From NCBI GenBank assembly GCA_017650105.1, contig JAGCFO010000039.1, forward strand, positions 2,571 to 66,570: a stretch of DNA of 64,000 nucleotides. Reading direction: 5' to 3'. This DNA comes from Bacteroidaceae bacterium (lineage in GTDB: Bacteria; Bacteroidota; Bacteroidia; Bacteroidales; Bacteroidaceae). Positions 6,023-25,961 of the stretch are shown here, piece after piece. The notes below the pieces were generated by a model, which saw only the letters and a program-made list of their open reading frames with translations, had not been told where the DNA came from and searched no databases. The position numbers and the translations under genes were made by a program. The stretch's first letter is position 1. Each line of letters opens with the position of its first letter.

Positions 6023-6036
6023 AGTCGTATGCATTA

Positions 6037-9199: not shown

Positions 9200-10918
9200 T
9201 TACTCTTCGCTATCTGTTCCCGGTTCTTCCTCCTGTTCCTCTTCCTCGTCGTTCTCCTCCATCGTAATGGTACGGATCATGCAGTTGTTGGTATCGAGGA
9301 TGTAGAAGATCAACGTATTCTCGCCCGAGATCTTATCGCGATGCACGTCGTTGACAAGTCCTGTGGGACGGTCGAAACGTGCCACATCACGCAGTTCTCC
9401 GTTTTCGGAGCCGTTGGTTTGTCCGTCAGCATGTGTTGCAGCACTTCCTCCCGCATAGGTTGAGATGATGCCTTCGGGTGTCAGATAGCGGATGGCGTTG
9501 TTCCTACTGTCGCAGAAGTAGAAATCATACACATCGCCATATCCGGCAGCCTCGTAGCTGTCGTTCTTGACAAACGTTCCCTGATAGGGGCGCGACACCT
9601 TTGCACTCTGCCCCACGCCGTCTTCGAATCCTGCAGCGCCGAGCTGTCCTGCAATGACGTACGGTGTGGAGAAGCGATGGGTGTTGTAGTTATAGTCGGT
9701 GCGAAGGATGTACTCTCTGTTGATGACAACTATGTAAGCATAATCTCCCGAAGGATGAATGTCAATCTGGCACTCATAAGCGTTGTCCTGCACCTTGAAG
9801 AGACGCTCGAAGGCAGGATTCTCCAACGCATTGGGCTCCCAGGCGGCATTTGCCTCCTTGTCAGGCAAAGTTGCCCAGTACTGATCCATATCAAGTCGGA
9901 GGATTTCACCCTGAGTGTAGCTGTTGAAATAAAGCTCGCCATTGGGATGCAGGTAAGCACCGTTGCACTGATTGTAAGCGCCTATCAGCTTGTGAGGAGA
10001 GTTGTTGTTGAATTCTGCCGTAGACTTGTCTCTGTCGACAATCCAGATGGCAGGAGCTCGGAACTCGCTGTTCCAGCAGTCAACGGATACGATAAGGTGC
10101 TCGCGCCAGCGGAGCTGCTCGGGAACAGCCGTTGCCAGCCAGGATTCGGTAGCAAAATAAGTAGGATTGCCATCCTCATCCTCACCCGTCTGCATCATTT
10201 CGCCATAGTCGGAGTAGGCGTAAGGATCGACAGCGAAGTCGATGGTACGCATACGCTCGCTATTGAACATGCTGATGTTGATGATGGTCTTCACCTCATG
10301 CTTTTCCAAGTCGATAAGTTGGATACCGTGCTGATTCTCACCCAAACGGGGCTCCTTGTCATAGAGGACAAAAAGCTGGTTGTGGTTGTAGGGCGAGAAC
10401 TGCATCACGCCGTCGTTGCGGAAGCCTGAGCATGTCTCGAACGAGCCGTCGGCCCAACCTTGATCATTACGTTCGTTCTTGTACCCACAAAGCTTTCCGA
10501 CTACCATCTTACGCTGATACTCGAACTTGTCCTTTGCCTGCACCGTTTGTGAACGGAGGCTGTCACCGATGGTGAGGACAATCTCTCCTGTGAAAGCGCC
10601 CGAAGGCACATAGCAGTAAAACACGTCGTTTTTCACACTTGCGATTACGGCGTCTTTACCTCCGATTGTCAAATGAAGCAGACTCTTGTCGTTTCCGAAG
10701 TTGCTTCCGTGGATGACAAGCTGCTGCCCCACGCCGCCTGATGAAGGAGTAAAGCTCGTAATCGTGACGGGTTTCGACGGGTCATAAGGCTCCGTCTCCT
10801 GCACACCCACGTAGTCTTCCGCCGTTGTGGCTCCGTCGCATCCCGCAAGGGAAAGCAATCCCACGCCACATGCCAGACTTACCAGCAGCGAGTGTACGAT
10901 TCTTTTTGTCATTTTCAT
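9200..10918 (-). CDS. IPT/TIG domain lipoprotein with beta-propeller (NHL-like) region and a polyacidic C-terminal tail
   Basis: Lipobox LLSLAGCDG. IPT/TIG signature VTITSFTPSSGGVGQQLVIHGSNFG. C-terminus EENDEEEEQEEEPGTDSEE. Its position directly upstream of SusC is typical of this class. Confidence 0.8.
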   Translation of the reverse strand: MKMTKRIVHSLLVSLACGVGLLSLAGCDGATTAEDYVGVQETEPYDPSKPVTITSFTPSSGGVGQQLVIHGSNFGNDKSLLHLTIGGKDAVIASVKNDVFYCYVPSGAFTGEIVLTIGDSLRSQTVQAKDKFEYQRKMVVGKLCGYKNERNDQGWADGSFETCSGFRNDGVMQFSPYNHNQLFVLYDKEPRLGENQHGIQLIDLEKHEVKTIINISMFNSERMRTIDFAVDPYAYSDYGEMMQTGEDEDGNPTYFATESWLATAVPEQLRWREHLIVSVDCWNSEFRAPAIWIVDRDKSTAEFNNNSPHKLIGAYNQCNGAYLHPNGELYFNSYTQGEILRLDMDQYWATLPDKEANAAWEPNALENPAFERLFKVQDNAYECQIDIHPSGDYAYIVVINREYILRTDYNYNTHRFSTPYVIAGQLGAAGFEDGVGQSAKVSRPYQGTFVKNDSYEAAGYGDVYDFYFCDSRNNAIRYLTPEGIISTYAGGSAATHADGQTNGSENGELRDVARFDRPTGLVNDVHRDKISGENTLIFYILDTNNCMIRTITMEENDEEEEQEEEPGTDSEE

Positions 10919-10949
10919 GAGATTGATTATTTAGTTAGATGTTCCTTAT

Positions 10950-13490
10950 TCATTTCTTGGATTTCTTTGCTGACTCTGCCTGCGGTACGAGCTTGTCAAC
11001 CAAGACGCGCATCCAATATCCTCCGATAACGCTGCGGGCCTTGAAGCCTACCATGCGTGCTGTCTTAGTGTCGCTCCAGTCGCTGATGGGCACGCGTGAA
11101 GGAGTCTCGTTGATGTAGGTATAGAGAGGAGCCACAAACTTGCCGAACTGGCTCATGTCGGATGCCATTCCTGCCGTCCACATTATCCAGTCGCTCTTGG
11201 TGTAGTCTTTGCGGCAGTCGAGAGGAAGTCCGTACTTGTTCTGCTTGGTGAGGTAGTATTTCACCTCACGTTCCATAGCGTCGTTCGGGAAGATGCCGGT
11301 ATCCCACAGCTTATCCCAAATCATGTTGTACTTCTGACTCCAGGTGTCGCTTCTGTCGAAAGCCAGACGGTAATGATCGCCTTCACGTGCGTTGTTTTCC
11401 CAGATGGCGCCCATCTTCTTGGCTATTCCCATATACTCTTCAGCAACCTTGTCGAGTCCCTTCATCTGAGCCATGATGGCATATCCTGTTACGCCCATGA
11501 TAGCTTTCACCGAGAGGTTGGTGTTGTGAGCCCAATGCCCGGCAAAGTCGTCGGTGCAGAGCTGGTTGGCAGGATCCTGCCCGTTTTCGACAAGGTAGTT
11601 TGCCCAAGTGGTGATGATTTCCCAGTATTTGTCGACGTACTGCGTGTTGCCGTCAAGCATGCACAGCATAGCAGCAAGCGTGAGCATGTTGCCAGCTTCC
11701 TCCAGAGGCATGTCGCCCCCGTATACCTGCCCGTTTGCCTTGGGATAGGTGCCCAGGTCGTGTGCGGCAAAGGGTTTGGTCCAGCGCCCGCTGAGGCTGT
11801 AGTCGAAGATGGATGTCATCATTGCCTTCTGCAGCTCGGGATTGTAGCAGAGGAACAGCGGAGCTTCGGGATAGGTGAGGTCAACCGTGTTGACGCAGCC
11901 GTTGGAGTTGTTCTCCTTCGAGAAGAAGAGGAGGTTGCCTTCGTCGTCCTTGAAGAGTTTGTGGGCAGCTATCACGTGGCGATACGAGCCGCTCAGTATC
12001 TCGGCATACTGCACGCCGCCTGATGCAAGTCCGTCGTCGTAGATTTGTCGGTCAAGGGCCTGACAGCGTTCCATTATGGAAGCATACTCACGCTCAAGGC
12101 GCTCCATCATGTCGAAAATGCTTACGTTTCCGTCGTGAGCCCAGTAGGCTTTGTAGTTTTTGTACATATACTGGATGTCCCAAATCTCATCGTAGCCTAT
12201 AAGCATGTGCGACGAGGCTTTGCTGACGCTGCCGAAATCGTGGAGGTATGCCAAAGCGGGCATCTGTGAGGGCATACGGCTCATCACCTTCTCCTGCGAT
12301 TCGGGCAGGCTGCCTGATGAGAGGAACGCTTGCTTCACATCCTGCTCTGTCCCCAGGCATACGCTGCCGTTATAGTCGGGAATATAGAGGTAGCCCCAGT
12401 CGATGCAGATTCCGTCGCCCGTCTTGGCAAGAATGGGCTGCTCGATGGTGCCTGCCTTCACATACTTCACGCTGCCCTTGCTTACCGTCTCGCTCACAGT
12501 CGGCTGAGCCATCTTGTTGAGGGCGAGCTGCGGGGTAGTGCTGATGAGCAGCTGAGTATTGTGCTCTTTTCCGTCGGTGCTGCGTACCTGATAGCTGATG
12601 TAGTTGGCTGGGCTGGAGAGGAGGTCGTAGTCGTCGATGAGCATCGGTGCCGTGAAGACGACATCGAGTTCCACAGGGCCGCAAGCGAAAGTATAATAGG
12701 ATGAGGTTGCCAGCACATCGACGCTTTTCTGCGAGGCTGTCTGGATAGCGCGGGTATCGAGTCCGATGTTGCGGAAGAGGCCGAAGTCGAGGTAAGCTCC
12801 TCCCGTCGTGTTGTGGCAATGAGCGGCAATAACGTTCTTACCCACATGAAGGGAACGCTTCTGTGCCTCGGTAAGCTGCAGCTTGACGCCCTCGCGCCAG
12901 ATCTCCACGTTGCCTGTGTCGTAGATGTTCTCACCGTTGAACCAGATGGCAAACGTGTCGTCGTGACTGAAGACGAGCCAGATGTCGCCCTTCAGGTCAT
13001 CGGCAGTAAGCTCAATCGTTCGGCGCACATAGATGTCGCTGTTGGTGTCGCTCCAGCGGGTGCGCACAAATGAGAGGTCGGGCGAGCCGAAGGCAGCCTG
13101 GCGTGTCTGCCACTGGCTGTCGTCAAATTCGGGAGCTATCCAGTTGCCCTTGGGTGTCTCGCGGGTAAACTGTCCTCTCCAGGCCTCCTCGTCGGCCATC
13201 GGAACAATTGATTCCATCACCTGGCGCTCGGCACCCATCCAGCGGTAGGTGGTGCCGTCGACACGCAGAAGTCCTTCGATGGATTTCTCATCATCGGTCC
13301 AATGACGGGTAGTGCCGTCGGTAAGCTGATCGTAAGGAGACCAGATGGAAAAATAGGGGTCGCTCACCACAAGAGGCACCGAGGGAAGTCGCAGATCGGT
13401 AGCCTGATAGGGTTTGAAGAAGTCGGCTTTCTGCGCGCAGGCAGTCAGCGAAAGGATAACCGCAAGGGCGGCAAGATGTGATTTTTTCAT
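10950..13490 (-). CDS. Glutaminase-A-like (DUF4964/DUF5127/DUF4965/DUF1793 architecture) putative glycoside hydrolase, lipoprotein
   Basis: ORF 10950..13580, trimmed to MKKSHLAALAVILSLTACAQ (ATG at 13488-13490). It shows strong paralogy to the N-terminal 850 aa of the 19175..23602 product, for example LRLPSVPLVVSDPYFSIWSPYDQLTDGTTRHWT and FFSKENNSNGCVNTVDLTYP. The family assignment is from memory of the domain architecture. Confidence 0.8.
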   Translation of the reverse strand: MKKSHLAALAVILSLTACAQKADFFKPYQATDLRLPSVPLVVSDPYFSIWSPYDQLTDGTTRHWTDDEKSIEGLLRVDGTTYRWMGAERQVMESIVPMADEEAWRGQFTRETPKGNWIAPEFDDSQWQTRQAAFGSPDLSFVRTRWSDTNSDIYVRRTIELTADDLKGDIWLVFSHDDTFAIWFNGENIYDTGNVEIWREGVKLQLTEAQKRSLHVGKNVIAAHCHNTTGGAYLDFGLFRNIGLDTRAIQTASQKSVDVLATSSYYTFACGPVELDVVFTAPMLIDDYDLLSSPANYISYQVRSTDGKEHNTQLLISTTPQLALNKMAQPTVSETVSKGSVKYVKAGTIEQPILAKTGDGICIDWGYLYIPDYNGSVCLGTEQDVKQAFLSSGSLPESQEKVMSRMPSQMPALAYLHDFGSVSKASSHMLIGYDEIWDIQYMYKNYKAYWAHDGNVSIFDMMERLEREYASIMERCQALDRQIYDDGLASGGVQYAEILSGSYRHVIAAHKLFKDDEGNLLFFSKENNSNGCVNTVDLTYPEAPLFLCYNPELQKAMMTSIFDYSLSGRWTKPFAAHDLGTYPKANGQVYGGDMPLEEAGNMLTLAAMLCMLDGNTQYVDKYWEIITTWANYLVENGQDPANQLCTDDFAGHWAHNTNLSVKAIMGVTGYAIMAQMKGLDKVAEEYMGIAKKMGAIWENNAREGDHYRLAFDRSDTWSQKYNMIWDKLWDTGIFPNDAMEREVKYYLTKQNKYGLPLDCRKDYTKSDWIMWTAGMASDMSQFGKFVAPLYTYINETPSRVPISDWSDTKTARMVGFKARSVIGGYWMRVLVDKLVPQAESAKKSKK

Positions 13491-13549
13491 ACTGATATGG
13501 TTTGGTTGTCGTTCACGATTGTTTTTGCTGTCGGATGATAATTTACGGG

Positions 13550-13557
13550 CAAAGTTA
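13550..13557 (-). promoter_or_regulatory. Candidate -7 box (TAACTTTG on the minus strand) for the PUL operon
   Basis: The plus strand reads CAAAGTTA, 60 nt upstream of the ATG at 13490. Matches the Bacteroidota sigma-AB consensus TAnnTTTG. Confidence 0.45.
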
Positions 13558-13842
13558 AATAATCTTTTTTTCAACTCCAAACTTTTCTTTCCTCCTTTTA
13601 AATTTTAATTCCCTTTTTCGGAAAACCCGCGATGAAAGCCCTTTTGGCAGAGTCAGCCTCATCCTCTTGCAGAATCTCCCCGGGAGGAGGAGAAAAGTGC
13701 GGATATGTGCCTTTTTTCGGGCGGAAATGGCGAATAGGGAAATGCGCGTTTTGCCACTCTCTCTCGAGTGGGGCATTTGGCTCATTTTGCCCCTTTTCAT
13801 CGGGAAAAATCGCTGCTTTGAGCAAGATGAAATATGCTCAAA

Positions 13843-13927
13843 GAAAAAAAATTTTTCCCTTCTTCATACGGCGATATGAAGAAAGAAAAAATTTTTTTGG
13901 AGAAGGAATAATTTCGGCTCGTTCTCC
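13843..13927. repeat. 21-bp-phased GAAGAAGG-core repeat family, locus A (inverted arrangement) in the divergent PUL / T9SS-cluster control region
   Basis: A8T5-CCCTTCTTC-ATACGGCGATAT-GAAGAAAG-A6T7-GGAGAAGG-AATAATTTCGGCT-CGTTCTCC. Degenerate units (for example CCCTTTTTCGGAAAA, GATGAAAAGGGG on the other strand) continue leftwards to about 13600. Confidence 0.85.
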
Positions 13928-14092
13928 CCACTCTTTCGGCTCTGCGACAATACGCCCGAATTCCTCTCTCCAACCTTAGCGCAACGGGAGTTGAAAGGCA
14001 ATAAAATCCTCTTATTTGCTCTGATAATGCCCTTACCTTATTAAATTAAGGTTTTTTTAGCCTCGCTTTGTGGTAATTCAGATTTTTTGCCG

Positions 14093-14100
14093 TACATTTG
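14093..14100 (+). promoter_or_regulatory. Candidate -7 box TACATTTG for the GH43 gene
   Basis: 30 nt upstream of the ATG at 14131. A TTTG (-33-like) lies at 14067-14070. Confidence 0.5.
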
Positions 14101-14130
14101 CAACAGCAATACAAAAAACTCTAACACTAC

Positions 14131-16263
14131 ATGAAACAGCATCTCACGCTTCTGCTTCTCCTCGTATGCAGCGTTGCCACCCTCTGGGCCGACGACAATC
14201 CTGCCACGTATAGCAACCCCATCATCGGGCGAAGTCTCCCCGACCCTACGGTCATACGCGCTCGCGACGGCATGTTCTACCTCTATGCCACCGAGGACAT
14301 CTATAACACCCCCATCTACCGCTCGCCCGACCTGGTGCATTGGGACTTCGTGGGTACCGCCTTCACAAACAGCACGCGCCCCAAGAAAATCGACGGCAAC
14401 CTTTGGGCTCCCGACATCAACTACATCAACGGCAAATACGTGCTCTACTACAGCAAGTCGAAGTGGGGAGGAGAATGGGAATGCGGCATCGGAGTAGCCA
14501 CGTCGGACTACCCCGAAGGGCCTTTCACCGACGTTGACTCCCTGTTTACCAGCAAAGGCATCGGCGTGCAGAACAGCATCGACCCCTTCTATATCGAGGA
14601 TGAGGGGAAGAAATACCTCTTCTGGGGCAGTTTCCGCGGCATCTACGCCATCGAGCTGAGCGACGACGGACTCAGCATTAAGGAGGGAGCCGAGAAGGTG
14701 AAGATTTCAAGCGGCAGAACCGAAGCCACATACATCATCAAGCACGACGACTACTTCTACCTCATAGGCTCCGCAGGCTCGTGCTGCGAAGGGGCAAAGA
14801 GCACATACAACCTGCTGATGGCGCGCTCGAAAAACATCCTGGGGCCCTATGTGGACCGAACGGGAAAGAAAGCCCTCAACGACGGCTTCTCGCAGCTCCT
14901 GGTAGGCAGCACGAAGGTGATAGGCCCGGGACATAACGCCGAGTTTATGGAGGACGATAACGGCACATTCTTCATCATCTATCACGGCTATGAGGCAAGC
15001 GACCCCGACGGAGGGAGAAAAGTGTTTATGGACCCAATCTCCTGGGACCGAGGCGGTTGGCCTACCGTGCGCAACATGCGCCCTTCGGTTTCGGCCAACG
15101 CGCCTGTGTTCAAGCACAACGTTGAGGGGGAACGGGCTGTAGGCAATCCTGTGCCGCTGGGCGACCCTTTCATCCTCAACGATGAGGGAACCTACTATGC
15201 CTACGGCACTCACGACGAGACAGGCATCGAGGTGTACCGCTCGACAGACCTTGCAAACTGGACTTTCTGCGGGCTGGCAATCGACACCATCGGAAGCAAG
15301 GCATCGGGCAACTTCCGCTCGCCCGAGATACACAAGACGGGCAGCCAGTTTATCCTCTATTACACAGCCGACAACCACATCTACGCTGCCACAGGCTCCA
15401 CCCCTACGGGCCCTTTCGTTGAGCAGGACGGCTACCTGCTCCATCCCGTAATAGCCAACGAAGCTTGCTCCGACGTCACCCGCTTCACAGATGACGACGG
15501 GCTGATGTACCTCTACTTCGTGCGCATCCAAAACGGCATCAGCTCCGTCTGGACCTGCAATCTTGAGGAAGACGGTCTCACGGCAGCTAAACCTCTGCGC
15601 ACCGTCTCTTCTCCTTCCCAAATATGGGAAAGGGAAAAGGGCTCCGTCAACTGCGCACCCTTCGTGCTGAAAAAAGACGACAGATATTTCTTCACTTATA
15701 CTGGAAACGAAGAGTCGAGCCTCAACTGCGGCATCGGATATCTCTATTCCACAACCCTCACGCGCGGCTTGCGCAAATATGGCTACAACCCCATCTGGCA
15801 AAAGCCCGAAGGACTCGGACTAACCGGCACCGCTCACGCCTCGTTCTTCTATAGTCCCGACAGCACTCTCTACTGTGTGTTTGATGCCCACAACAGGGAG
15901 GACAACATCTACCCTCGCCTGATGTACATCAGCACCGCAACTGTTTCTGACGGGGAGCTTCACATCAGCACCGACAACATCATCTCCCCCGTAATCAGCG
16001 GAGACGAGTCGTCGGGAATCTCTCCGATTAAAGCCGACACATATATCATAAGCCCGAAGCGTATTCGCGACTCCTTCACCGTTGAGAGCCTCTCAGGAAA
16101 GCCATTCAGGTGGCAAGTCGTAAGCTTGCACGGGCAAGTAATGAAATCTGGAAACTCTGAAGGAAGCATACGTGTTTCCCTTGCCGACACGCCGCAGGGA
16201 ATGTATATCATCCGACTCACAAACAGCGACGGAGAGTATAGCGAAAAGGTAATCCACATCTAA
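14131..16263 (+). CDS. Tandem GH43-type glycoside hydrolase (two five-bladed-propeller modules) with T9SS C-terminal sorting domain
   Basis: Signal peptide. The first module starts NPIIGRSLPDPTVIRARDGMFYLYATED and the second starts GNPVPLGDPFILNDEGTYYAYGTHDE. The C-terminus QGMYIIRLTNSDGEYSEKVIHI resembles a Por secretion tail. Confidence 0.85.
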   Translation: MKQHLTLLLLLVCSVATLWADDNPATYSNPIIGRSLPDPTVIRARDGMFYLYATEDIYNTPIYRSPDLVHWDFVGTAFTNSTRPKKIDGNLWAPDINYINGKYVLYYSKSKWGGEWECGIGVATSDYPEGPFTDVDSLFTSKGIGVQNSIDPFYIEDEGKKYLFWGSFRGIYAIELSDDGLSIKEGAEKVKISSGRTEATYIIKHDDYFYLIGSAGSCCEGAKSTYNLLMARSKNILGPYVDRTGKKALNDGFSQLLVGSTKVIGPGHNAEFMEDDNGTFFIIYHGYEASDPDGGRKVFMDPISWDRGGWPTVRNMRPSVSANAPVFKHNVEGERAVGNPVPLGDPFILNDEGTYYAYGTHDETGIEVYRSTDLANWTFCGLAIDTIGSKASGNFRSPEIHKTGSQFILYYTADNHIYAATGSTPTGPFVEQDGYLLHPVIANEACSDVTRFTDDDGLMYLYFVRIQNGISSVWTCNLEEDGLTAAKPLRTVSSPSQIWEREKGSVNCAPFVLKKDDRYFFTYTGNEESSLNCGIGYLYSTTLTRGLRKYGYNPIWQKPEGLGLTGTAHASFFYSPDSTLYCVFDAHNREDNIYPRLMYISTATVSDGELHISTDNIISPVISGDESSGISPIKADTYIISPKRIRDSFTVESLSGKPFRWQVVSLHGQVMKSGNSEGSIRVSLADTPQGMYIIRLTNSDGEYSEKVIHI

Positions 16264-16347
16264 AAGAAAGCAAATTCAGAAAAGAAACAGAGAGCACCTA
16301 TTCATAAAATAAAAAAGGAGATTTTTTGCTATTCAAGAAAAATCACC

Positions 16348-16355
16348 TATTTTTG
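16348..16355 (+). promoter_or_regulatory. Candidate -7 box TATTTTTG for the 881-aa protein gene
   Basis: 43 nt upstream of the ATG at 16399. Confidence 0.45.
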
Positions 16356-16398
16356 CCACAAGAAAACAATTTATTCACTCACTTATAAAAAACCGCTT

Positions 16399-19044
16399 AT
16401 GAGAAAAAATTTACTTCTTTTATGTCTGGGAGTAGTTGCCTTGAGTGCAAGCGCCCAGATGATGGATTCTCCTTGGAAGGGTACCGTTCTTCCAGAAACA
16501 GGAGGAACCTATTACCTCTACAATGTTGAATCGGGTTTGTGGCTCCAGAACAACCGCAAGATTCAGGACGACTGGACCACTCGCGCACAGGTAGGCTTAC
16601 ACGGCTTCGACATTAAGGTGATTCCCATAGAGGGCGGCTTCCAACTTGACCCCCGCTTCGGACACAACCACAGTATCAATGCCAATCTTGATCAGGGCTA
16701 CTTAGACACCGAACGTGAAGTTTCCGCTTGGTCTTTCGTTGCTCTGCCTCCTGATGGTTACGATGCTTCTAACATGTACACTATCGAAGCCATCGACGGT
16801 GCCGTGCTGTTGGGTGTTGACCTCGGAGATGATGAAATGACTACTACTCTCTCCTACGATCCCAGCTGCCCCAACGTATCGTGGCAGCTCGTTTCCAAAG
16901 AGGAACGTCTGGCAGCTTTGGCAAACGCCAGCGAAGACAATCCTATGGATGCCACTTGGCTCATCGACGACTGGGACTTTGCTAATCAGAACGAGCGCAA
17001 CGCCAGCTGGAAGAGCACCCTTTCGCACAACGCATATAATCAAGGCTATCCTGCAAACCGCGCTTTTGAAAGCTGGAATGGTTCTGTAGGTGAATTTGCT
17101 CAGACCATCACCGGCTTGCCCGATGGTAGATACGGCCTTACACTGCAGGGATACTATCGCGATGGTAGCACGGGAGGCGTTGGAAGCAAGCACGTTGAAG
17201 GCACTGAGGAAATCCGAGCCTATTATTTCGCTAACTCCGTTAAGCATCCGCTCATGTCGATCTGCGAAAACGGCGTTACCGAGCCTATCGAAGGTGTCTT
17301 CCCTGTTGAGGTAGAAGGCGGATACTTCCTTCCTGGAGATGGAGGTAGCGCTCTTCCGAATGCATCTAACTCTTTCTTCCTCGATTTCTATTGGAACGAG
17401 GAAATCTTCGTTACTGTAGCAGGCGGAACACTCAAGATAGGTGTAGGCAAAGACAGTGGTGTGGGTGACGACTGGACTGTATTCGACAACTTCAAGCTCA
17501 CCTACTACGGCGCATACGTTGACATCGATGAATTGCTTGCCGACCTGGGTGACCTTATCACCGAGGTGGACGACTTCGAGGGCCTCAAGCCTGGATTCCT
17601 CGAGCAAGCTCTGGCTCAGGCCAATGACGCCCTTAACAGCACCGATGCTGCTGTCATCGGCACTGCTTTCAACAACCTCAACGAAAAGTTCACTGTTGTT
17701 AAGGCTGCTCAGAACAACATGAAGAACTTTGTTGCCACCGTAGCCCTCTGCCAGCAAGAAGCAGCCGCAGGCTCAGATCTTGCTAAAGCTATTACCAGCA
17801 CTCAGGCTATCTATGACAACGCTACCACCACCGACGAATATGCTCAAGCCCTCAACACTCTTCAGATTGCCCGCAGGGTTAACGCTGCCGAGCGCGAAGA
17901 GAACTATTGGGCAGGACACGAGCCTGAGCTGGGTCAGAAGTACTATTTCTATAATGTGGGCGAAAAGCGCTATCTCTGCGGAGGTGACGACTGGGGCGCA
18001 CACGCTGCCCTCGGCATCCCAGGCATCGAGATTCAGCTCGAAGAGGGTAACGTTGCCGGATTCCGCCTCAACACCTTCCTCAATAACGGAGGCGACAGCC
18101 AGTATCTGAACTACGGAGGCTATATGGACACCGGAGGCAACGACTGGATGTTCGTTGAAGTAGGCAACGGAGTATACAATATCGTACGTGCCGAAGATCT
18201 TACAATCAGCTTGGGCTATCGTCCCGGCACCTATTGCCGTGTGGACACAGATATGCCCGACCTTGCCGACCCACGCAATCAGTGGATCCTCGTCACCCGC
18301 GAAGACCGTTACGAACACCTCGCAGACGCTACTCCTTCTAACCCGGCTGACGCATCGTTCCTCATCGGAATGCCAAACTTCAGTCAGCGTGAGAACCTCG
18401 AAGAATCCGGTTGGTACTTCGGCGCAGGAAGCATCTGGGGACGCGGCAGCAACTATCCCGATTTCGTATATGAATGCTACAGCACTCCTTACTTCGAAAT
18501 GAACCAACTCGTTACTGATCTCCCGTTGGGCAACTACGAAGTATCCTGTCAGGGTTACTATCGTGAAAGCAATCATGAGGGACAGGCAGCCATCTTGGCT
18601 GAAGGAGGAGAGGCTCTGCGTGCCGCTCTGCTGTATGCTAACGAGGGTGAAGTGGAGATGATGAACATCACCGACGAAGCAGACAAAGCTCCCGGTATGG
18701 GCGAGCTCGGCTCTGCAGAATATCCTCACGACTATCCCAAGTGGGTTTACGAAGCTACCAACTTCTTCCAGTGTGGACTTTACAAGAATGCCGTTAACTG
18801 CACCGTTGACGCCTCCGGCGAATTGTTCCTCGGTGTAGGTAAGGACTACGAATCTGATGCAGACTGGGTTGTTGTCGACAACTTCCGCATCAAGTACTTC
18901 GGCGACGGAACAGGCATCAAGGATGTCATCAATGATAAACCCGTTCAGAACGGAAAGATCTATAACCTCATGGGCGTGGAAGTAACAACTCCAGCTGAAG
19001 GCACCATCTATATCCGCGACGGAAAGAAGTATATGAAGAAGTAA
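16399..19044 (+). CDS. Secreted protein of unknown function: two copies of a roughly 350-aa (trefoil-like + jelly-roll-like) module separated by a helical linker, with a T9SS CTD-like tail
   Basis: Signal peptide MRKNLLLLCLGVVALSASAQ. The internal repeat shows in YYLYNVESGLWL vs YYFYNVGEKRYL, LPDGRYGLTLQGYYRDGS vs LPLGNYEVSCQGYYRESN, and DDWTVFDNFKLTYYG vs ADWVVVDNFRIKYFG. The tail is GKIYNLMGVEVTTPAEGTIYIRDGKKYMKK. Confidence 0.8.
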   Translation: MRKNLLLLCLGVVALSASAQMMDSPWKGTVLPETGGTYYLYNVESGLWLQNNRKIQDDWTTRAQVGLHGFDIKVIPIEGGFQLDPRFGHNHSINANLDQGYLDTEREVSAWSFVALPPDGYDASNMYTIEAIDGAVLLGVDLGDDEMTTTLSYDPSCPNVSWQLVSKEERLAALANASEDNPMDATWLIDDWDFANQNERNASWKSTLSHNAYNQGYPANRAFESWNGSVGEFAQTITGLPDGRYGLTLQGYYRDGSTGGVGSKHVEGTEEIRAYYFANSVKHPLMSICENGVTEPIEGVFPVEVEGGYFLPGDGGSALPNASNSFFLDFYWNEEIFVTVAGGTLKIGVGKDSGVGDDWTVFDNFKLTYYGAYVDIDELLADLGDLITEVDDFEGLKPGFLEQALAQANDALNSTDAAVIGTAFNNLNEKFTVVKAAQNNMKNFVATVALCQQEAAAGSDLAKAITSTQAIYDNATTTDEYAQALNTLQIARRVNAAEREENYWAGHEPELGQKYYFYNVGEKRYLCGGDDWGAHAALGIPGIEIQLEEGNVAGFRLNTFLNNGGDSQYLNYGGYMDTGGNDWMFVEVGNGVYNIVRAEDLTISLGYRPGTYCRVDTDMPDLADPRNQWILVTREDRYEHLADATPSNPADASFLIGMPNFSQRENLEESGWYFGAGSIWGRGSNYPDFVYECYSTPYFEMNQLVTDLPLGNYEVSCQGYYRESNHEGQAAILAEGGEALRAALLYANEGEVEMMNITDEADKAPGMGELGSAEYPHDYPKWVYEATNFFQCGLYKNAVNCTVDASGELFLGVGKDYESDADWVVVDNFRIKYFGDGTGIKDVINDKPVQNGKIYNLMGVEVTTPAEGTIYIRDGKKYMKK

Positions 19045-19070
19045 AAAAACTTTATTCCTTCTACATATGA

Positions 19071-19106
19071 GAATATCGAGGCTCCAAAAGCCCCGATATT
19101 CTTTTT
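19071..19106 (+). terminator. Intrinsic terminator after the 881-aa protein gene
   Basis: GAATATCGAGGC, tccaaaa, GCCCCGATATTC, then TTTTT. 12-bp stem with one mismatch. Confidence 0.7.
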
Positions 19107-19138
19107 ATAATTGACTTGTGAAATCCAAAGATTATCCC

Positions 19139-19146
19139 TACTTTTG
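19139..19146 (+). promoter_or_regulatory. Candidate -7 box TACTTTTG for the 1475-aa fusion gene
   Basis: 28 nt upstream of the ATG at 19175, and downstream of the terminator at 19071-19106. Confidence 0.5.
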
Positions 19147-19174
19147 CAAACCAAAAACATAAACTCAGTTATTC

Positions 19175-22100
19175 ATGAAAGTTCTCCGTTCCCTCGTCTT
19201 GGCGGCAATCGCTTTGTACAGCACTTCCATCATTGCTCAGGATGATGCATTTTTCACTCCTTACCAGCCAACCGACCTCAGGCTACCTTCAGTGCCCCTC
19301 GTAGTCAACGACCCGTATTTTTCCATATGGTCTCCTTATGACAAGCTCACCGACGGAACAACCAAGCACTGGACGAATGCTGAAAAAGCAATGGGAGGAC
19401 TGCTGCGGGTAGACGGCACCACCTACCGCTGGATGGGCACTGAGACAGAAGCCCTTCTGACATCCCTCGCCCCTATGACCAACGAGACTGCCTGGACGGC
19501 ACGCGTCAGCTACAAGCTTGCTAACGGATGGACGAACCCTTCTTTCGACGACAGCAGCTGGGCTATCGAAACTGCAGCGTGGGGTACTGCCAACGAATAC
19601 CCCAACGTGAAGACAAAATGGACTGACACAAACAGCGACATCTACATCCGCCGTACCGTTTCTCTCACAACAGACGACTTGGAAGAAGACCTCTGGATTG
19701 TATTCTCACACGACGATGTCTTCGAGATGTACATCAACGGCACCCGAGTTATTTCTACAGGCGAGACTTGGCTACAGGGTGAGCGGCTTCACCTCAGCGC
19801 CACACAGCGTGCCCTACTCCATGAAGGAGAGAACATCCTCGCTGCTCACTGCCACAACACCAGCGGAGGTGCATACGTTGACTTCGGACTATACAAGAAC
19901 AACCTTGTGAAAAACGGAGAAATAATTCCCGCCACCCAGAAAAGCATCGACGTGCTTGCCACAAACACATACTACACCTTCCAATGCGGGCCTGTGGATC
20001 TCGACGTAGTGTTCACAGCCCCCATGATTATCGACGACCTCGATTTGCTCTCCACTCCCATCAACTACATCTCAGCACGCGTACGCTCTACCGACGGCAA
20101 TTCTCACGAAGTATGTCTACTCTTTGAGACAACACCTCAGCTTACTGTAAACGAAGAGATGCAGCCCACCGTTTCCACTGTTGTCGAAGAAAACGGCATT
20201 CGCTACCTGAAATCGGGCAGCAAGGCACAACCCGTTCTCGGGCGTTCTGGCGACCTCATTTGCATCGACTGGGGATACCTATACCTCCCTTCCGTCAACG
20301 GAGAAGTAGGGATGGCTTCACAGTACGTGATGGAGAATACGTTTGCCCAATCAGGAAACTTCCCCGAGAGTGAGTCATCCGTCAGCAGCACTTGCTTTGC
20401 CGATATGCCCGTGCTTGCTTGGAAGCACGACTTCGGAACCCTTACACAAGGTTCCACTTACATGATGATTGGCTATGACGAAGTGTTCGACATCCAGTAC
20501 ATGAGACAGAACTACAAAGGCTATTGGGCACGCAACGGCAAAACTATATTCCAAGCCTTCGAGGAACTGCGCGACGGATACGACAGCATTATGGAACGTT
20601 GCCGCAAACAAGACAAAATCATCTACGACGATGCCCTGCAATCTGCCAACATTCACTATGCCGAACTGCTCAGCGCCTCCTACCGACAGGTAATAGCTGC
20701 GCACAAGCTCTTCGAGGATAAGGACGGTAACCTCCTCTTCTTTTCGAAGGAAAATAACTCAAACGGTTGCGTCAACACAGTGGACCTTACCTATCCCTCC
20801 GCCCCTCTCTTCCTCTGCTACAATCCTGACTTGGAAAAAGGTATGATTACCTCCATCTACGACTACACACGCTCGGGAAAGTGGAATAAAGACTTTGCCG
20901 CACACGACCTGGGAACCTATCCTCACGCCAACGGACAAGTGTACGGGGGCGATATGCCTCTCGAGGAGAGTGGAAACATACTTATACTTACCGCATACAT
21001 CGTTGAACAAGAGGGTTTCACCACATGGATGCGCAAATACTGGAATATTGCCAAACGTTGGGCCGACTATTTGGTGCAAAACGGACAAGATCCTGCTAAC
21101 CAGCTCTGCACCGACGACTTTGCAGGACACTGGGCTCATAACGCCAACCTCTCTATCAAAGCCATCATGGGAGTTGTTGCCTTCTCAAAGATAGCTCGCG
21201 TGAGAGGAGAGGAGACCGACAGTCCCACCTACATCGCTATGGCCAATGAATATATGGCGAAAGCTGTCGCTATGGCGCGACAGTGGGAAATGGATGCGCG
21301 CGACGGTGACCATTACCGACTGGCTTTCGACAGAGAGAACACCTGGAGTCTGAAATACAATATGGTGTGGGATAAACTTTGGGACACCCATCTCTTTCCT
21401 AACCGAGCTATGCAGCGCGAGATTCGCTTCTATTTAGGTAAGCAGAATAAATATGGAATTCCTCTCGATAATCGTCAGTCGTACACCAAGAGTGACTGGG
21501 TGCTGTGGGCTGCCGCGATGGCTGACGATAACGATACCTTCATACGCCTGATGGAGCCTATGTATAAATACGTCAACGAAACTCGCTCACGCGTGCCCAT
21601 TTGCGACTGGCACTGGACTACCTCGGGTGATATGACAGGTTTCCGTGCACGCAGTGTCATCGGAGGTTACTGGATGAAAGTTCTTATGGACAGACACGTC
21701 ACGCCCAATGAAACCAGCACGTGGGCTCCCGCCGACTCCTCTCTACTCACATCGTGGGGCGCCGAAGTCGACACATCAAGCGTGCTCCCTGCCTATCCCC
21801 GTCCACTTCTGCAGCGTTCCCAGTGGCAAAACCTTAATGGATTGTGGGAGTACTCCATCTCGAAGGTAACATCCACACCCGCCAAATTCGACGGACAGAT
21901 TCTCGTGCCTTTCCCCATTGAAGCCTCTCTCTCAGGAGTAGGCACCTGGCTTGACAACAACTATTACCTTTGGTATCGTAAGGAGTTCACCACTCCAAAG
22001 GAATGGAGCGGGAAAAACATTTTACTCCACTTCGGAGCCATCGATAACCTCTCCTACATCTGGCTCAATGGTAGCATCATCAAGCGTAACAACATAGGCG

Positions 22101-23602
22101 GATATACAGGACTGTCCATCGATGTTACCAACTATCTCAAACACGACGGCACTCCCAACGTGCTGGTTGTACGTGTGAGCGACCCCACCAACGGCGACTC
22201 CCAGGTTGTTGGTCTTCAGCGTTCCACTCCCGGAGGAAACGATGAACAAGGATTCTCCTCCGTCAGCGGCATCTGGCAGACAGTTTGGATGGAACCCGTT
22301 GCCAACACCTACATATCCGACATTCGGACAACACCCGATATTGACTCTGGCACCCTCTCTCTGAAAGTCTCCACCGTTGGCACCTCCGCTTCCGACGAAG
22401 TAAAAGTTGTGCTGAAAGCAGGCTCTGCTATCATAGCCGAAAAGAGAGCTCCAGCAACGACTGACGACATTGTGCTCCCTGTGGCTAATGCCCGTCTGTG
22501 GAGCCCTGCTGATCCGTTCCTTTATGATGTTGAAGTACAGCTCATCTCCAGCGGAACCGTCACCGATGATGTCCGCTCCTATGCCGCGATGCGCAAGATC
22601 AGCAGGAAGCAAGCCGAAGACGGACGCTGGCATTTCCAGCTTAACAATCATGACATATTCCTCTATGGTGTGCTCGACGAAGGCTACTGGCCCGACGGCA
22701 TCTATACAGCACCTTCCGATGAAGCCCTCGCCTATGACATCCAACTCGCTCGCACGCTCGGCTTCAACACTATACGCAAGCACCAAAAGGTAGAACCTGA
22801 AAGATGGTATTATCACTGCGATCGTCTGGGTATGCTCGTCTGGCAGGACATGCCGGCTATCGCTAAGGAGACAGAGATCTGGGAACCCTATGACTGGTAC
22901 TCCGATACCGACGGCACCCTGCCCTCCACTTCTGCTAGCCGTTACAAGAACGAGTGGCGCTCTATTGTGAACACCCTATACAACCATCCCTCCGTCGTTA
23001 TCTGGACTCTCTTTGACGAAGCTGTGGGGCAGCATTCTACATCAGCCTACGTTGACTTCACACGTGACCTTGATACCACGCGCCTTGTCGACGCTGCTTC
23101 CGGTGGCAACCACCATCAAGGGTTGGGAGATATGCTAGATCTCCATAACACGGGTAAAAACCCTTCCATTACCTTCTGCGATGCATCATACCCATTCGTA
23201 CTGGGCAAGTGCGGTAGCTACGCTTCGGACGACATCGAGCAATACACCACCCTTGTCAACAAACTGCAGACACTCGCTAAAGGCACCACCGTCTCACGTG
23301 TCAACACTGCACTAGCAGCTGCTGTTTATGCACGCCTCGTGGATGTGGAAATGCAAAACGACGGACTCGTTACAGCCGACAGGAGCACTGTCAAGATGGA
23401 TGCTGCTGCCATCGCTGCTCTTAACGACGCTCTCTGCCGTACCTATGGCGATGGACTATCGTCGGTATCATTCCCTACAAGCGACGCGCAACCCATCTAT
23501 TTTGACATGCTCGGACGGCCCCTCACAGGTCCCCTCCCCGTAGGCTCCATCGTTATCTTGCACAATGCCGACGGCACCGTTTCAAAGATGTACGTGAAGT
23601 AG
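19175..23602 (+). CDS. 1475-aa fusion: glutaminase-A-like putative glycosidase (aa 1-~850) + GH2-like module (aa ~860-1400) + T9SS CTD-like tail
   Basis: Signal peptide. The N-terminal part is paralogous to the 10950..13490 product. The GH2-like part contains LWEYSISKV...[50 protein letters not shown] and [17 protein letters not shown]. The tail is [36 protein letters not shown]. Confidence 0.85.
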   Translation: [1475 protein letters not shown]

Positions 23603-23627
23603 CTTACCCTTCATATCACATAAGAAA

Positions 23628-23657
23628 AGCAGCACCTCATCGGAGTGCTGCTTTTTT
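23628..23657 (+). terminator. Intrinsic terminator after the 1475-aa fusion gene (A-tract upstream, so possibly bidirectional)
   Basis: AGCAGCAC, ctcatcgga, GTGCTGCT, then TTTTT, preceded by AAAA. Lies between convergent stops at 23602 and 23719. Confidence 0.75.
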
Positions 23658-23718
23658 AGTTGAAAAAATGGATGGAAATGTTAGAGGCGGAAACTATTCT
23701 CTATTCTTATCTAATGTA

Positions 23719-25869
23719 TCAGCGTATCACATACTTCTTTCTGTCTTTGATATAGAAGCCTTTTGAGGGCAGTTCAACACGACGTCCTGAGAGATCATAC
23801 ACAGTCTCGCTGTGAGGGAACTCATCAAGGTTGTTGACGGTAGGCGAAATGATACCCAGCGAGGGGTTCAGTATGTTGCGTATCACACTTTCATCGGGTG
23901 TCATAGCATAGTTGTCGCAGATGATGAATGGACCCTGCTTGTATGCTCCGCTGCGGATAAGGAAGCCCTCGTTGCTTGCCGACACACGCACCACTTTTGC
24001 ATCGTCTGCCAACGTCAACGACACAGTCAGGTACTTCTTGGCTCCGGGATTGTATATCTTGAATTCACTGCTGCCGTCATCGTGCATGATATACCAGTTG
24101 TGGTTCAGGTCACACACGTTCAGTTTCTCCTCGCTCACCGTCTTCACTTTGCCGTCGTCTACCACCAAATATTTGCCGCTCGTGGCATCTTGCAGCACGT
24201 ATGAGTGGAATGAGTTCAGATGGATGGTCTTAGCAATGATGCCGTACTTCAGAGGAGTGCTGTTCTGCGCAAGTCGCATGAGAGCAGTTCTCCACTCGGA
24301 CACTCCCAGTGGCTCCTCAGAGTGGAACATTGCCTCTAGCGGTGCCAGGTCTGCACTACTATAGCTGCCGAAGTGGTTGGCATTGGAGAGGAAGTGCTGT
24401 GCAACGTTCTTGAGGTGCTCCACACTGTTCTTTTGACACATCGACTCCATCTCCGTCATCATGCTTGTGCGGTACGATTCCTCCACCCTTTTGCGCAAAG
24501 CGTCCATGTCGATAGTGTCTACCCACGGAGTCTCCGTCACCAGCGGCAACGTGTTAGAGCTGTCACAAGGCGCCACGTAACCTCCTGTCTGCATATAGTA
24601 GCAATTGTCGTACATAGCCGTAGCCCCATGCCCGTAGTCGGTACGCGAACTGCGTCCTCCCGAGCCTTGCGTGTGACCGAAGTCCACCTTGTTCATCGGA
24701 TACCACTTACCGCCTACCGATGAGCGCATGGTGGGATTGCGGAAGTATGCACGGCGGAAAATCTCGCCTCCCACGTGATAGAAGTTCTCAATGAACGAAT
24801 AAAAGCTGTCGTACAGATGATTGATGCCGCTCTGCCGCAGCGTGGCTATATATCGCCATTCCGTCTCATCATCTTGCTTGTACCACATTGTCTGCAGCGT
24901 GTTTTGATAGGTCACCATCGTCCCATCATCGAGTGTTACGTCGACTGCCTCAGGGCGCGCATACACCAAAAACTGCATCCAGTGATCGGGATTCCACCAG
25001 TTTCCATCGGGATAGCGAGCGCTAATGCCCGTTCCCTCACCGCCGAAACGCGTGGTGTAGACATCGGGACCCTTGTCCAGTTCGCCCGAGCGTAAGTAGT
25101 CGGGCAGGTTAGGATCACTGTCGGTATCGCCGTGATCCCATATGCTGAAGAGCACCTGGCGGTTATATCCACCCGCTTTCGCTATCGACTGTATACCGCC
25201 GTACTGCCCGTCGGAGCCTATAGACATCACATACGTACTCAGCACCTCGTAGATGGAGGGATACATCACTTCCAGATACACCCAGTCGAAGGCGTCGCTT
25301 GTGGGAGTCGACTTGTCGGTCGAGCGGTAGCCGAAAAGGTGTACTGACGGAGCCATAAATATCTCCGAGTCTACAACTGGCAGATTTCCCTCGCGCTGGA
25401 ACCGCAAACCGTAGAACTGAGATATGCCGCTTGCAGCACCCTCGCCGGTCAGCTCCAGACGGTACCACTTGTCTTCGGGCACCACCACATCAGGCAGTAC
25501 CTCCACGGTGTCACGGCGCATCGACGTGTTAACGAACGATGCCTCGCCCGTCTGCAGCACGGTACCGTCTTGAGGGTCAACGAGGCGCGCATGCACCTTG
25601 AACGTCTTGCCGTTCTTGGGCATCAACACCATATCGGCGCGCACGTGCCCAGCTGGCATATGGAGCCCGAACACCACGCACACTCCGCTCTTCGTTGGCC
25701 ATGAGAGCGAGGTCTCCTGAAACGACGTCCCGTAGTAGGCGCCGTCAAGTTCCTGATAGCATTTGCCGGCATAGATGAAATCAACCGTAGGATTATAGTC
25801 AACTGCCGAAACCGACAGACAAGCTATGCTTGTTAACAGGCACATTAGTTTTCGCAAATAGTCTTTCAT
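23719..25869 (-). CDS. DUF5077/DUF3472-like secreted protein with C-terminal ricin-like region and T9SS CTD-like tail
   Basis: ORF 23719..25953, trimmed to MKDYLRKLMCLLTSIACLSVSA (ATG at 25867-25869). Central segment: YGGIQSIAKAGGYNRQVLFSIWDHGDTDSDPNLPDYLRSG...RFGGEGTGISARY. The tail is TVYDLSGRRVELPSKGFYIKDRKKYVIR. The domain names are recalled, not searched. Confidence 0.75.
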   Translation of the reverse strand: MKDYLRKLMCLLTSIACLSVSAVDYNPTVDFIYAGKCYQELDGAYYGTSFQETSLSWPTKSGVCVVFGLHMPAGHVRADMVLMPKNGKTFKVHARLVDPQDGTVLQTGEASFVNTSMRRDTVEVLPDVVVPEDKWYRLELTGEGAASGISQFYGLRFQREGNLPVVDSEIFMAPSVHLFGYRSTDKSTPTSDAFDWVYLEVMYPSIYEVLSTYVMSIGSDGQYGGIQSIAKAGGYNRQVLFSIWDHGDTDSDPNLPDYLRSGELDKGPDVYTTRFGGEGTGISARYPDGNWWNPDHWMQFLVYARPEAVDVTLDDGTMVTYQNTLQTMWYKQDDETEWRYIATLRQSGINHLYDSFYSFIENFYHVGGEIFRRAYFRNPTMRSSVGGKWYPMNKVDFGHTQGSGGRSSRTDYGHGATAMYDNCYYMQTGGYVAPCDSSNTLPLVTETPWVDTIDMDALRKRVEESYRTSMMTEMESMCQKNSVEHLKNVAQHFLSNANHFGSYSSADLAPLEAMFHSEEPLGVSEWRTALMRLAQNSTPLKYGIIAKTIHLNSFHSYVLQDATSGKYLVVDDGKVKTVSEEKLNVCDLNHNWYIMHDDGSSEFKIYNPGAKKYLTVSLTLADDAKVVRVSASNEGFLIRSGAYKQGPFIICDNYAMTPDESVIRNILNPSLGIISPTVNNLDEFPHSETVYDLSGRRVELPSKGFYIKDRKKYVIR

Positions 25870-25892: not shown

Positions 25893-25900
25893 CAAAAATA
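25893..25900 (-). promoter_or_regulatory. Candidate -7 box (TATTTTTG on the minus strand) for the DUF3472-like gene
   Basis: The plus strand reads CAAAAATA, 24 nt upstream of the ATG at 25869. Confidence 0.45.
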
Positions 25901-25953
25901 ACGGAATCGGCAAAAAAAAACAATTCAATTGCGTTTTTTTTCAGATATTGCAT

Positions 25954-25961
25954 TACTTTTG
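25954..25961 (+). promoter_or_regulatory. Candidate -7 box TACTTTTG for the calpain-like protease gene
   Basis: 76 nt upstream of the ATG at 26038. Confidence 0.4.

Follow-up and report, generated by a model that had tools for sequence, protein, structure and literature searches.

A Polysaccharide Utilisation Locus from a Prevotella-like Member of the Rumen Bacteroidales, Adjoined by Genes for Putative Type IX Secretion Cargo with Long and Short C-terminal Domains

Introduction

[quoted passage not shown] In the rumen, 'Candidatus Paraporphyromonas polyenzymogenes' has been described as possessing T9SS-linked multi-modular cellulases (Naas et al., 2018). For Prevotella intermedia, 80 T9SS cargo proteins have been predicted and 48 'short' C-terminal domains (CTDs) described, and it is the only species reported to have both long and short CTDs (Ye et al., 2025, Open Biol 15:240335; PMC11969387). 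The present article concerns a stretch of 64 kb, referred to below as the window, from a rumen organism deposited as Bacteroidaceae bacterium (GenBank assembly GCA_017650105.1, contig JAGCFO010000039.1). It contains two divergent units: a minus-strand unit encoding SusC- and SusD-like proteins, as found in polysaccharide utilisation loci (PULs), and beside it four genes, g1 to g4, whose products end in tails resembling T9SS CTDs.

This locus is like ChiUL in that a T9SS-exported enzyme would take the place of a lipoprotein in a SusC/D locus. ChiA is a single, soluble enzyme, whereas three or four cargo genes occur in the present locus, one of which encodes a probable non-catalytic binder. Long type A and short CTDs are both represented, the cargo genes are placed divergently, and their products are probably anchored at the surface. 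The resemblance to 'Ca. P. polyenzymogenes' lies in the joining of glycoside hydrolases to the T9SS by a rumen member of the Bacteroidales; here the cargo genes have a physical and evolutionary link with SusC/D and are mostly short-tailed. Since ChiUL, rumen T9SS cellulases and short CTDs have already been published, the architecture is not new in kind. Three points are modestly new. In an organism other than P. intermedia, long and short CTDs occur together on carbohydrate-active and glycan-binding proteins linked to a PUL; the short class, which is invisible to standard models, is very large; and a conserved, undescribed type of PUL joins a lectin-like T9SS cargo protein to two copies of a 'glutaminase-like' enzyme. 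The literature on DUF4965 in PULs, and on galactofuranosidases with GH92 in PULs, yielded no description of this type of locus.

With a probability of about 0.7, the locus is a conserved PUL of rumen Prevotella-like Bacteroidales in which a classical lipoprotein and SusC/D import unit is adjoined by genes for T9SS cargo. This reading draws on gene content, the classes of tail, paralogy, conserved linkage and the interchange of tails among orthologues, and it would extend to T9SS dependence, surface anchoring, a division of labour and a substrate. Whether Prevotella of the rumen and gut, which rank among the major degraders of fibre, use the T9SS to break down glycans is still described as open, in a debate based on searches with the model TIGR04183 alone.

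Long and Putative Short C-terminal Domains Side by Side

Three of the tailed genes, g1 (14131-16263), g2 (16399-19044) and g3 (19175-23602), lie on the plus strand, and g4 (23719-25869) is convergent with them on the minus strand. The g1 product has two domains of glycoside hydrolase family 43 (GH43) followed by a long type A CTD. That of g2 is family-less and ends in a putative short CTD; g3 encodes GtaA-like and GH2 modules with a divergent short tail, and g4 a DUF3472 domain and a beta-trefoil with a putative short CTD. Open reading frames (ORFs) were found at the coordinates given for these genes in a first-pass annotation made from the letters of the sequence, and the C-terminal strings quoted there were exact. 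An independent gene caller agrees: on the metagenome contig from which the DNA comes, ENA ERZ28653423 scaffold_268 (108.7 kb), it gives products of 846, 710, 881, 1475 and 716 residues, the last four being those of g1 to g4. For g4 the start at 25869 is favoured over a longer ORF (25953) by the gene caller, by the orthologue in the nearest related locus (L001), and by a promoter-like TAnnTTTG at 25893-25900. The signal peptides claimed earlier are borne out on all four products by basic-then-hydrophobic N-termini, judged by reading of the sequence rather than by a predictor.

The long CTD of g1 occupies residues 647-710 (nt 16069-16260). TIGR04183 (cut-off 23) gives 33.1 bits when the whole protein is scanned and 36.6 for the tail by itself, and PF18962 (cut-off 27) gives the tail 27.7. 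It is the only match to a curated type A CTD model among the scanned proteins of the window. Short tails were found in g2, g3 and g4 only, among window ORFs of at least 100 residues. If only a few percent of the proteome is tailed, four tailed genes in a row are, by our estimate, no chance arrangement.

P. intermedia's short CTDs measure 40-55 residues from cleavage site to C-terminus and are predicted to form a single three-stranded sheet. Their cleavage consensus is PT/GI, in which Ile is the most conserved residue. Motifs B and D each have an invariant Gly, and motif E an invariant basic residue; motif D begins with GxY, which one subgroup replaces by GxN, and continues with Ile, and the spacing between B and D is 1-6 residues. 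Five cleavage sites were established by mass spectrometry, and the short-CTD cargo is glycosylated at the mature C-terminus (PMC11969387).

The tails of the window are about 43-49 residues long, with a spacing of 5-6 residues between motifs B and D. In g2 the tail comprises residues 839-881 (nt 18913-19041), reading GDGT/GIKDVINDKPVQNGKIYNLMGVEVTTPAEGTIYIRDGKKYMKK to the end, with cleavage predicted at T838/G839; its motifs are IYNLMG-5-GTIYI-KKYMKK, and the GT/GI site is 43 residues from the C-terminus. In g4 it comprises residues 672-716 (nt 23722-23856), reading SL/GIISPTVNNLDEFPHSETVYDLSGRRVELPSKGFYIKDRKKYVIR, with cleavage predicted at L671/G672, motifs VYDLSG..-5-GFYI-KKYVIR and the SL/GI site 45 residues from the C-terminus. 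The g3 tail (approximately residues 1427-1475, nt 23453-23599) is divergent and would belong to the GxN subgroup of short CTDs; its orthologues have GINIV, of that subgroup, in motif D, and most have x/GI at the site. When 31 diverse tails were aligned, the only invariant columns were two Gly and a Lys. An AlphaFold2 model of g2 places a disordered linker at 839-850 and strands at 854-855, 861-862, 870-873 and 876-879 (pLDDT 60-79). The model of g4, a poor one, has a disordered stretch at 670-685 and terminal strands at 703-707 and 710-714.

[quoted passage not shown] They differ in being carried by carbohydrate-active and glycan-binding proteins beside a PUL in a rumen organism, and they are known from sequence, whereas those of P. 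intermedia were proven by proteomics. The comparison supports the assignment of the g2 and g4 tails as putative short T9SS CTDs, and less firmly that of g3.

Specificity and Breadth of the Short Tail

A hidden Markov model built from the tails of the g2 family alone matches the tail of g4 (E 3.6e-7). Iteration of the model over tails taken from every ORF of 76 related loci brought a match to that of g3 as well (E 1.3e-4); because iteration can drift, g3 is the weakest of the three assignments. Of 157 domain matches in full-length ORFs of the related loci, 149 stop no more than 6 residues short of the C-terminus, and the remaining 8 no more than about 15. Signal-peptide-like N-termini, by a simple rule rather than a predictor, are present on 138 of the 150 tailed ORFs, and one has a lipobox. 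Among the 120 best homologues of g2 (36-96% identity) 118 keep the tail, as do 118 of the 120 best homologues of g4.

When 1.84 billion cluster representatives were searched with a profile of the short tail, 62,242 proteins matched at E<=0.001, of which 1,833 were at E<=1e-10; among the best 150 matches, 146 end within 3 residues of the C-terminus. None of 59 short-tail proteins of at least 300 residues matches PF18962 (E<=1e-5) or TIGR04183 (E<=0.01). Other domains on the carriers include BspA-type leucine-rich repeats (LRR), DUF285, beta-helix and Fn3-associated domains, choice-of-anchor J, GH5, GH26 and the carbohydrate-binding module (CBM) CBM26, and one of the carriers is a member of an endonuclease family that depends on the T9SS. 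The cargo of P. intermedia, too, commonly has LRR, DUF285, choice-of-anchor J and the beta-helix (pectin lyase) fold (PMC11969387). A typical short CTD is also found at residues 641-682 of chain A of PDB 4KCA, a solved GH43 endo-arabinanase from a rumen metagenome (STGIRDAKAGIQQAERIYDLSGRLVTTPLQKGIYIRNGKKYV). Two small predicted proteins among the global matches, P0242 and P0244, have two short-tail units in tandem (…SGQKVNASYKGIIIQNGKKAVK…IYNLAGQKVDSSYKGIVIKNGKKYINNFDK), so that the unit can duplicate.

TIGR04183 misses three of the four PUL-linked cargo proteins and all 59 of the unrelated short-tail proteins. A recent study that used TIGR04183 alone found the T9SS proteins of rumen Prevotella to lie outside PULs, and the size of the short class bears on that conclusion. 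If the assignment is true, surveys with this model alone strongly underestimate T9SS-linked carbohydrate-active enzymes, and an annotation model for short CTDs would alter the predicted secretomes and PUL gene content of Prevotellaceae and Muribaculaceae.

Exchange of Tails and Conservation of Linkage

A scan of 185,579 species genomes for the g2 family found 214 relatives. The nearest, in the water-buffalo rumen metagenome-assembled genome (MAG) RGIG8271, has 84% identity, and the order g1-g2-g3-g4-peptidase is kept there. The peptidase is a calpain-like (Peptidase_C2) secreted protein encoded directly after g4 (25948-27201, plus strand); it has no CTD and shows 81% identity to its counterpart in that genome (L001). 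In the rumen, g2 is carried by MAGs of Prevotella and 'Bacteroidaceae'. Other carriers are Hoylesella loescheii, Segatella maculosa, Prevotella conceptionensis, Leyella lascolaii, Lepagella muris, other Muribaculaceae and Barnesiella-like MAGs; H. loescheii, S. maculosa, P. conceptionensis and L. muris have been cultured. The names Staphylococcus, Oscillospiraceae and Bacteroides on some MAG records are unreliable and were disregarded.

At one position in these loci the type of tail is exchanged. The GH43 homologues in g2-containing loci include 10 with a long CTD, 13 with a short CTD, one with a lipobox and 4 with none of these. Because tails swap at one locus position, long and short tails appear to do the same job, and this is the strongest comparative argument. 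Among GtaA-like homologues, those nearest g3 comprise 28 with a short CTD, of the GxY or GxN kind, and 7 that are tail-less; those nearest its lipoprotein paralogue, described below, comprise 6 with a lipobox and 7 with neither. At the level of predicted signals, this shows that the same enzymes may reach the surface by either of two alternatives, lipoprotein tethering or the T9SS. In two g2 homologues from Prevotella MAGs, P0058 and P0062, dockerin-type repeats (PF00404; GDVNGDGAVDVADIS...) replace the short CTD; in some lineages the g2-type binder may be mounted through cohesin and dockerin.

A complete g2 homologue was present in 73 loci; among these, complete ORFs for a GtaA-like protein were present in 39 and for GH43 in 25, and at least one PUL-type partner in 47. 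By tblastn, the TIG-domain lipoprotein of the SusC/D unit and/or SusC were found within 10 kb in 15 loci, and S. maculosa and P. conceptionensis have the full run g2-TIG-SusC-SusD-DUF4973. Homologues of g2 are also linked with GH92 in a TIG-SusC-SusD-DUF4973-GH92 set in Prevotellaceae and Muribaculaceae. The linkage outlasts changes of order and orientation across Prevotellaceae, Muribaculaceae and Barnesiella-like genomes, at 32-40% protein identity. Its persistence while order and orientation vary points to selection for co-inheritance. Together with the GtaA-like paralogy, this cross-family conservation supports a functional link between the divergent units.

Contrary Evidence and Alternatives

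Several findings weigh against the reading of the locus as a PUL with T9SS cargo. The last 70-75 residues of g2, g3 and g4 match none of TIGR04183, TIGR04131 and PF18962 at E values up to 10. An hhalign comparison of short and long CTD profiles (GH43 orthologues) is weak (P 0.005, probability 7%); its register is the published one, in which motifs B and D align and the long form has 13 residues inserted, and it is too weak for proof. The window tails were compared with those of P. intermedia at the level of the published motif description. The g3 tail has DG/LS in place of x/GI, and GSIVI (GxI) in motif D. Among the scanned proteins of the window and in the 10 kb past its right end no T9SS core component was found; the hunt for such components gave, inside the window, only BamG, Lnb and a CNNM protein resembling GldE, and, past its right end, genes for ClpX/ClpP, trigger factor, a SurA-like protein and Mla.

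The want of matches to curated models, the weak similarity to long CTDs and the lack of T9SS genes in the scanned DNA would suit the possibility that the tails of g2 to g4 are not T9SS signals, being instead some other C-terminal module, such as a small binding or anchoring hairpin, or decayed long CTDs; their replacement by dockerin-type repeats in two g2 homologues also indicates that the position tolerates other modules. This explanation is nevertheless very unlikely. Short CTDs with the same motifs are cleaved in P. intermedia and glycosylated at the mature C-terminus, the retention of the tail in nearly all of the best g2 and g4 homologues at 36-96% body identity argues against decay, orthologous GH43 genes have in some cases this tail and in others a bona fide long CTD, and one carrier falls in a T9SS-dependent endonuclease family. 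The first-pass annotation had assigned all four tails to the T9SS sorting type, with TIGR04183/TIGR04131-type models as the check. On that check the assignment stands for g1 and, for lack of a match, would be refuted for the other three. The check is judged inadequate, and the idea not refuted, because none of the 59 unrelated short-tail proteins matches TIGR04183 or PF18962 either. As to the secretion genes themselves, the host genome likely encodes a T9SS, given the bona fide long CTD on g1 and the presence of the T9SS in related Prevotella and Muribaculaceae. Complete T9SS gene sets have been reported in Muribaculaceae, which fits their tailed orthologues.

Other contrary points concern the coupling of the two units. 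The Bacteroidota -7 promoter motif, TAnnTTTG, is found 24-60 nt upstream of the start of the minus-strand unit and of each of g1, g2, g3 and g4. In the divergent intergenic region (13491-14130) it lies at 13550-13557 on the minus strand and at 14093-14100 on the plus strand. The window has 30 such motifs, where 20.5 are expected by chance, and five of them are in about 1 kb of relevant intergenic DNA. With a motif before each, g1 to g4 look individually promoted rather than a single operon, and co-expression with SusC/D would not be implied. The linkage of g4 was found solely in the nearest relative, outside the conserved gene set, and g4 is therefore probably an add-on. Among the window ORFs adjoining the locus there is no sensor or regulator of the hybrid two-component, SusR-like or extracytoplasmic function (ECF) sigma/anti-sigma kind, a scan that covered the window ORFs and not the approximately 2.5 kb of contig to its left.

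It could be, then, that four T9SS cargo genes stand beside a PUL by chance and serve another purpose, such as adhesion or a different glycan, uncoupled from SusC/D. The separate promoter-like motifs and the restricted linkage of g4 would suit this, as would a transcriptome study of rumen Prevotella in which T9SS genes (by TIGR04183) lay outside PULs and were mostly uninduced by polysaccharides. In addition, 26 of the 73 g2 loci have no PUL-type partner as a complete ORF in the fetched flank, a count that is an upper bound, many flanks ending at contig ends. Mere proximity is considered unlikely, since the linkage of g2, GtaA-like, GH43 and TIG-SusC-SusD genes survives rearrangement at 32-40% protein identity, and since one enzyme module is found in two settings, as a PUL lipoprotein and as T9SS cargo.

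Structure and Probable Function of the Encoded Proteins

The g1 product matches GH43 (Pfam E 2e-100). Its first domain is nearest to endo-1,5-alpha-L-arabinanases in the PDB (E ~1e-35) and its second to PDB 3kst, which is uncharacterised.

No Pfam or NCBIfam family matched g2, and its hundreds of homologues are all merely 'hypothetical protein' at source. An AlphaFold2 model built with 17 homologues (mean pLDDT 86) has two units, each with a beta-trefoil-like and a CBM-like jelly-roll part, with a helical bundle between them. Foldseek matched the model only to CBMs (CBM61 and a porphyran-binding CBM), beta-trefoil lectins or lectin-rich toxins, and found no catalytic fold. As modelled, g2 is a probable non-catalytic glycan binder, an array of lectin and CBM domains.

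The g3 product is a fusion of a GtaA-like module (residues 16-840) with a GH2 module (approximately residues 880-1420). The paralogy proposed earlier between one of the tailed genes and the first gene of the SusC/D unit proved to be that of g3, the N-terminal 848 residues of which are 59% identical over 845 residues to the GtaA-like lipoprotein. The GtaA-like family has long been annotated as glutaminase; a fungal member is labelled by a probe for retaining beta-glycosidases, and a Streptomyces homologue has weak beta-galactosidase activity and lacks glutaminase activity. The Pfam architecture is like that of the fungal and bacterial 'glutaminase A-like' proteins (DUF4964-DUF5127-DUF4965-DUF1793), and the locus differs in having one copy as a PUL lipoprotein and the other as putative T9SS cargo. 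The GH2 part resembles beta-D-galactofuranosidases, matching 9j6n/9j6m over their full length (E 1e-110, query 1-573 on chain 26-599). It also matches the uncharacterised GH2 protein 7sf2 over the full length (E 7e-140). Unlike the solved galactofuranosidases, the g3 module sits behind a GtaA-like six-hairpin module and bears a putative T9SS tail.

In g4 an N-terminal beta-sandwich is followed by DUF3472, a helical linker and a beta-trefoil; Pfam matched DUF3472 and, weakly, ricin-B. A PDB sequence search gave one solved relative, 4qhw, an uncharacterised 'putative two-domain sugar hydrolase'. AlphaFold2 modelled the DUF3472 core poorly (mean pLDDT 66), and fold matches other than 4qhw and beta-trefoil lectins were disregarded. 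The first-pass annotation was right that two of the four proteins have no assignable catalytic function, these being g2 and g4.

The divergent SusC/D unit, all on the minus strand, had been drawn from 13490 down to position 1; its left end is instead at 309. The first gene encodes the GtaA-like putative glycoside hydrolase (10950-13490; DUF4964, DUF5127 and GtaA six-hairpin domains, Pfam E 1e-137; lipobox LTAC), which has no homologue in a PDB sequence search. There follow an IPT/TIG lipoprotein (9200-10918; Pfam TIG E 3e-13; lipobox LAGC by reading), a SusC-like TonB-dependent transporter (6037-9180) with CarboxypepD_reg and Plug domains and no STN domain in the Pfam scan, a SusD-like lipoprotein (3851-6034; SusD_RagB E 2.5e-58), a DUF4973/BT_3044-like lipoprotein (2803-3858; Pfam E 1e-43) and an enzyme of the GH92 alpha-mannosidase family (309-2648; Glyco_hydro_92 E 1e-167, TIGR01180 824 bits). 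The gaps between genes run from -8 to about 150 bp, and SusC and SusD are 2 bp apart. Lipoboxes were read from the GtaA-like, TIG, SusD and DUF4973 sequences, and the leader of GH92 is of the signal-peptidase-I type; the GH92 enzyme is probably periplasmic. The IPT/TIG lipoprotein, homologues of which adjoin SusC in related loci, is a probable surface glycan-binding protein, and the DUF4973 lipoprotein probably a second. The true start of the latter may be an internal ATG at 3825; for the product of the long start a database look-up gave no gene on record. The unit has the features by which a PUL is defined, namely adjacent susC and susD genes together with carbohydrate-active enzymes (GH92 and GtaA-like) and the TIG and DUF4973 lipoproteins.

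Proposed Mechanism and Substrate

The products of g1 to g4 would pass the inner membrane by the Sec pathway. The T9SS would then recognise their CTDs, a seven-stranded long type A domain in g1 and minimal three-stranded short ones in g2, g3 and g4. The sortase PorU is expected to remove the CTD within the flexible linker, at the sites predicted above for g2 (T838/G839) and g4 (L671/G672), and the new C-terminus would be joined to a surface glycolipid, so that the proteins are displayed on cells and vesicles. There the lectin and CBM array of g2 may hold the polymer while g1, with its double GH43, and g3, with its GtaA-like and GH2 modules, trim or cut it extracellularly. The TIG, DUF4973 and SusD lipoproteins would pass the fragments to SusC, and the GH92 enzyme and the GtaA-like lipoprotein would complete the degradation.

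The first-pass annotation had proposed that proteins exported by the T9SS, or anchored to anionic lipopolysaccharide (A-LPS), form the outer, polymer-attacking layer of the locus. The tails support the T9SS part of this. Lipoproteins are still present, however, and because TIG, SusD, DUF4973 and the GtaA-like enzyme carry lipoboxes, the T9SS proteins would add to the surface layer rather than make up all of it. Furthermore, A-LPS is the anchor of Porphyromonas gingivalis, and the linking sugar of P. intermedia differs (PMC11969387).

The exported proteins might instead be released in soluble form, with public digestion of a particulate substrate. F. johnsoniae provides a precedent in ChiA, which is fully secreted in soluble form, and sequence decides neither anchoring nor release. 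Such release is nonetheless highly improbable here: the short and long type A cargo of P. intermedia is C-terminally glycosylated and is found in membrane and vesicle fractions, and a lectin-like protein such as g2 would be most useful when attached.

The substrate may be a glycan that contains both beta-D-galactofuranose and alpha-mannose, a fungal-type galactomannan for example. The suggestion follows from the galactofuranosidase match of the g3 GH2 module, the presence of the GH92 alpha-mannosidase family and the arabinanase-like GH43. Alpha-L-arabinofuranose and beta-D-galactofuranose are similar in shape. On the other side of the balance, the assignment rests on the homology of one module, and this substrate is doubtful. 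A broader proposal is offered tentatively, the odds being somewhat against it: that the short CTD defines a very large T9SS class in gut, rumen and oral Bacteroidales unseen by annotation, and that the locus represents a conserved undescribed class of PUL in which T9SS-anchored g2 would serve as the surface glycan-binding protein while T9SS-anchored GH43 and the GtaA-like and GH2 fusion act on a glycan with galactofuranose and mannose, for instance fungal galactomannan. The locus also offers a tractable means, with cultured carriers in existence, of approaching the true substrate of GtaA-like 'glutaminases' and the question whether glycans with galactofuranose serve gut Bacteroidales as food.

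Other Features of the Window

The window has three GH92 modules, as had been noted, one within the SusC/D unit (309-2648) and the others at 28805-31048 and 54683-58186. A possible GH76 had also been suggested; it was rejected for want of a Pfam match, zero GH76 being found on real-looking ORFs of at least 240 residues in a scan that left out SecA (40341-43721) and two genes for resistance-nodulation-division (RND) efflux (48067-49107 and 49145-52312). The third GH92 module is part of a plus-strand fusion of 1167 residues (54683-58186) with an ADP-ribosylglycohydrolase domain, an unusual pairing for GH92; the gene overlaps by 4 bp the stop of a gene for a GH13 cyclomaltodextrinase-like protein (52416-54686).

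A run of envelope genes occupies 31223-36195 on the minus strand. It encodes the GldE-like CNNM/CBS/CorC protein (TIGR03520 205 bits, below the cut-off of 376), a tetratricopeptide repeat (TPR) protein and the BamG-family outer-membrane protein (296 bits, above the cut-off of 250). On the other strand, 36532-38001 encodes Lnb, the lipoprotein N-acyltransferase of Bacteroidota. The envelope genes from 31223 to 38001 are consistent with an origin in Bacteroidota, and none is a part of the T9SS core.

Midway between the SusC/D unit and g1, at 13848-13895, lies an inverted repeat, rich in AT, whose stem measures 20 bp (AAAATTTTTTCTTTCTTCATA...TATGAAGAAGGGAAAAATTTT). The hairpin could be a regulator site, or the terminator of a small unannotated transcript. 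Lastly, a tandem repeat at 62132-62271, after a gene of the endonuclease/exonuclease/phosphatase family and apparently non-coding, consists of 6.7 copies of a 21-bp unit (TGAAGAAGGAAACGCGCGAGA) with a 90% match.

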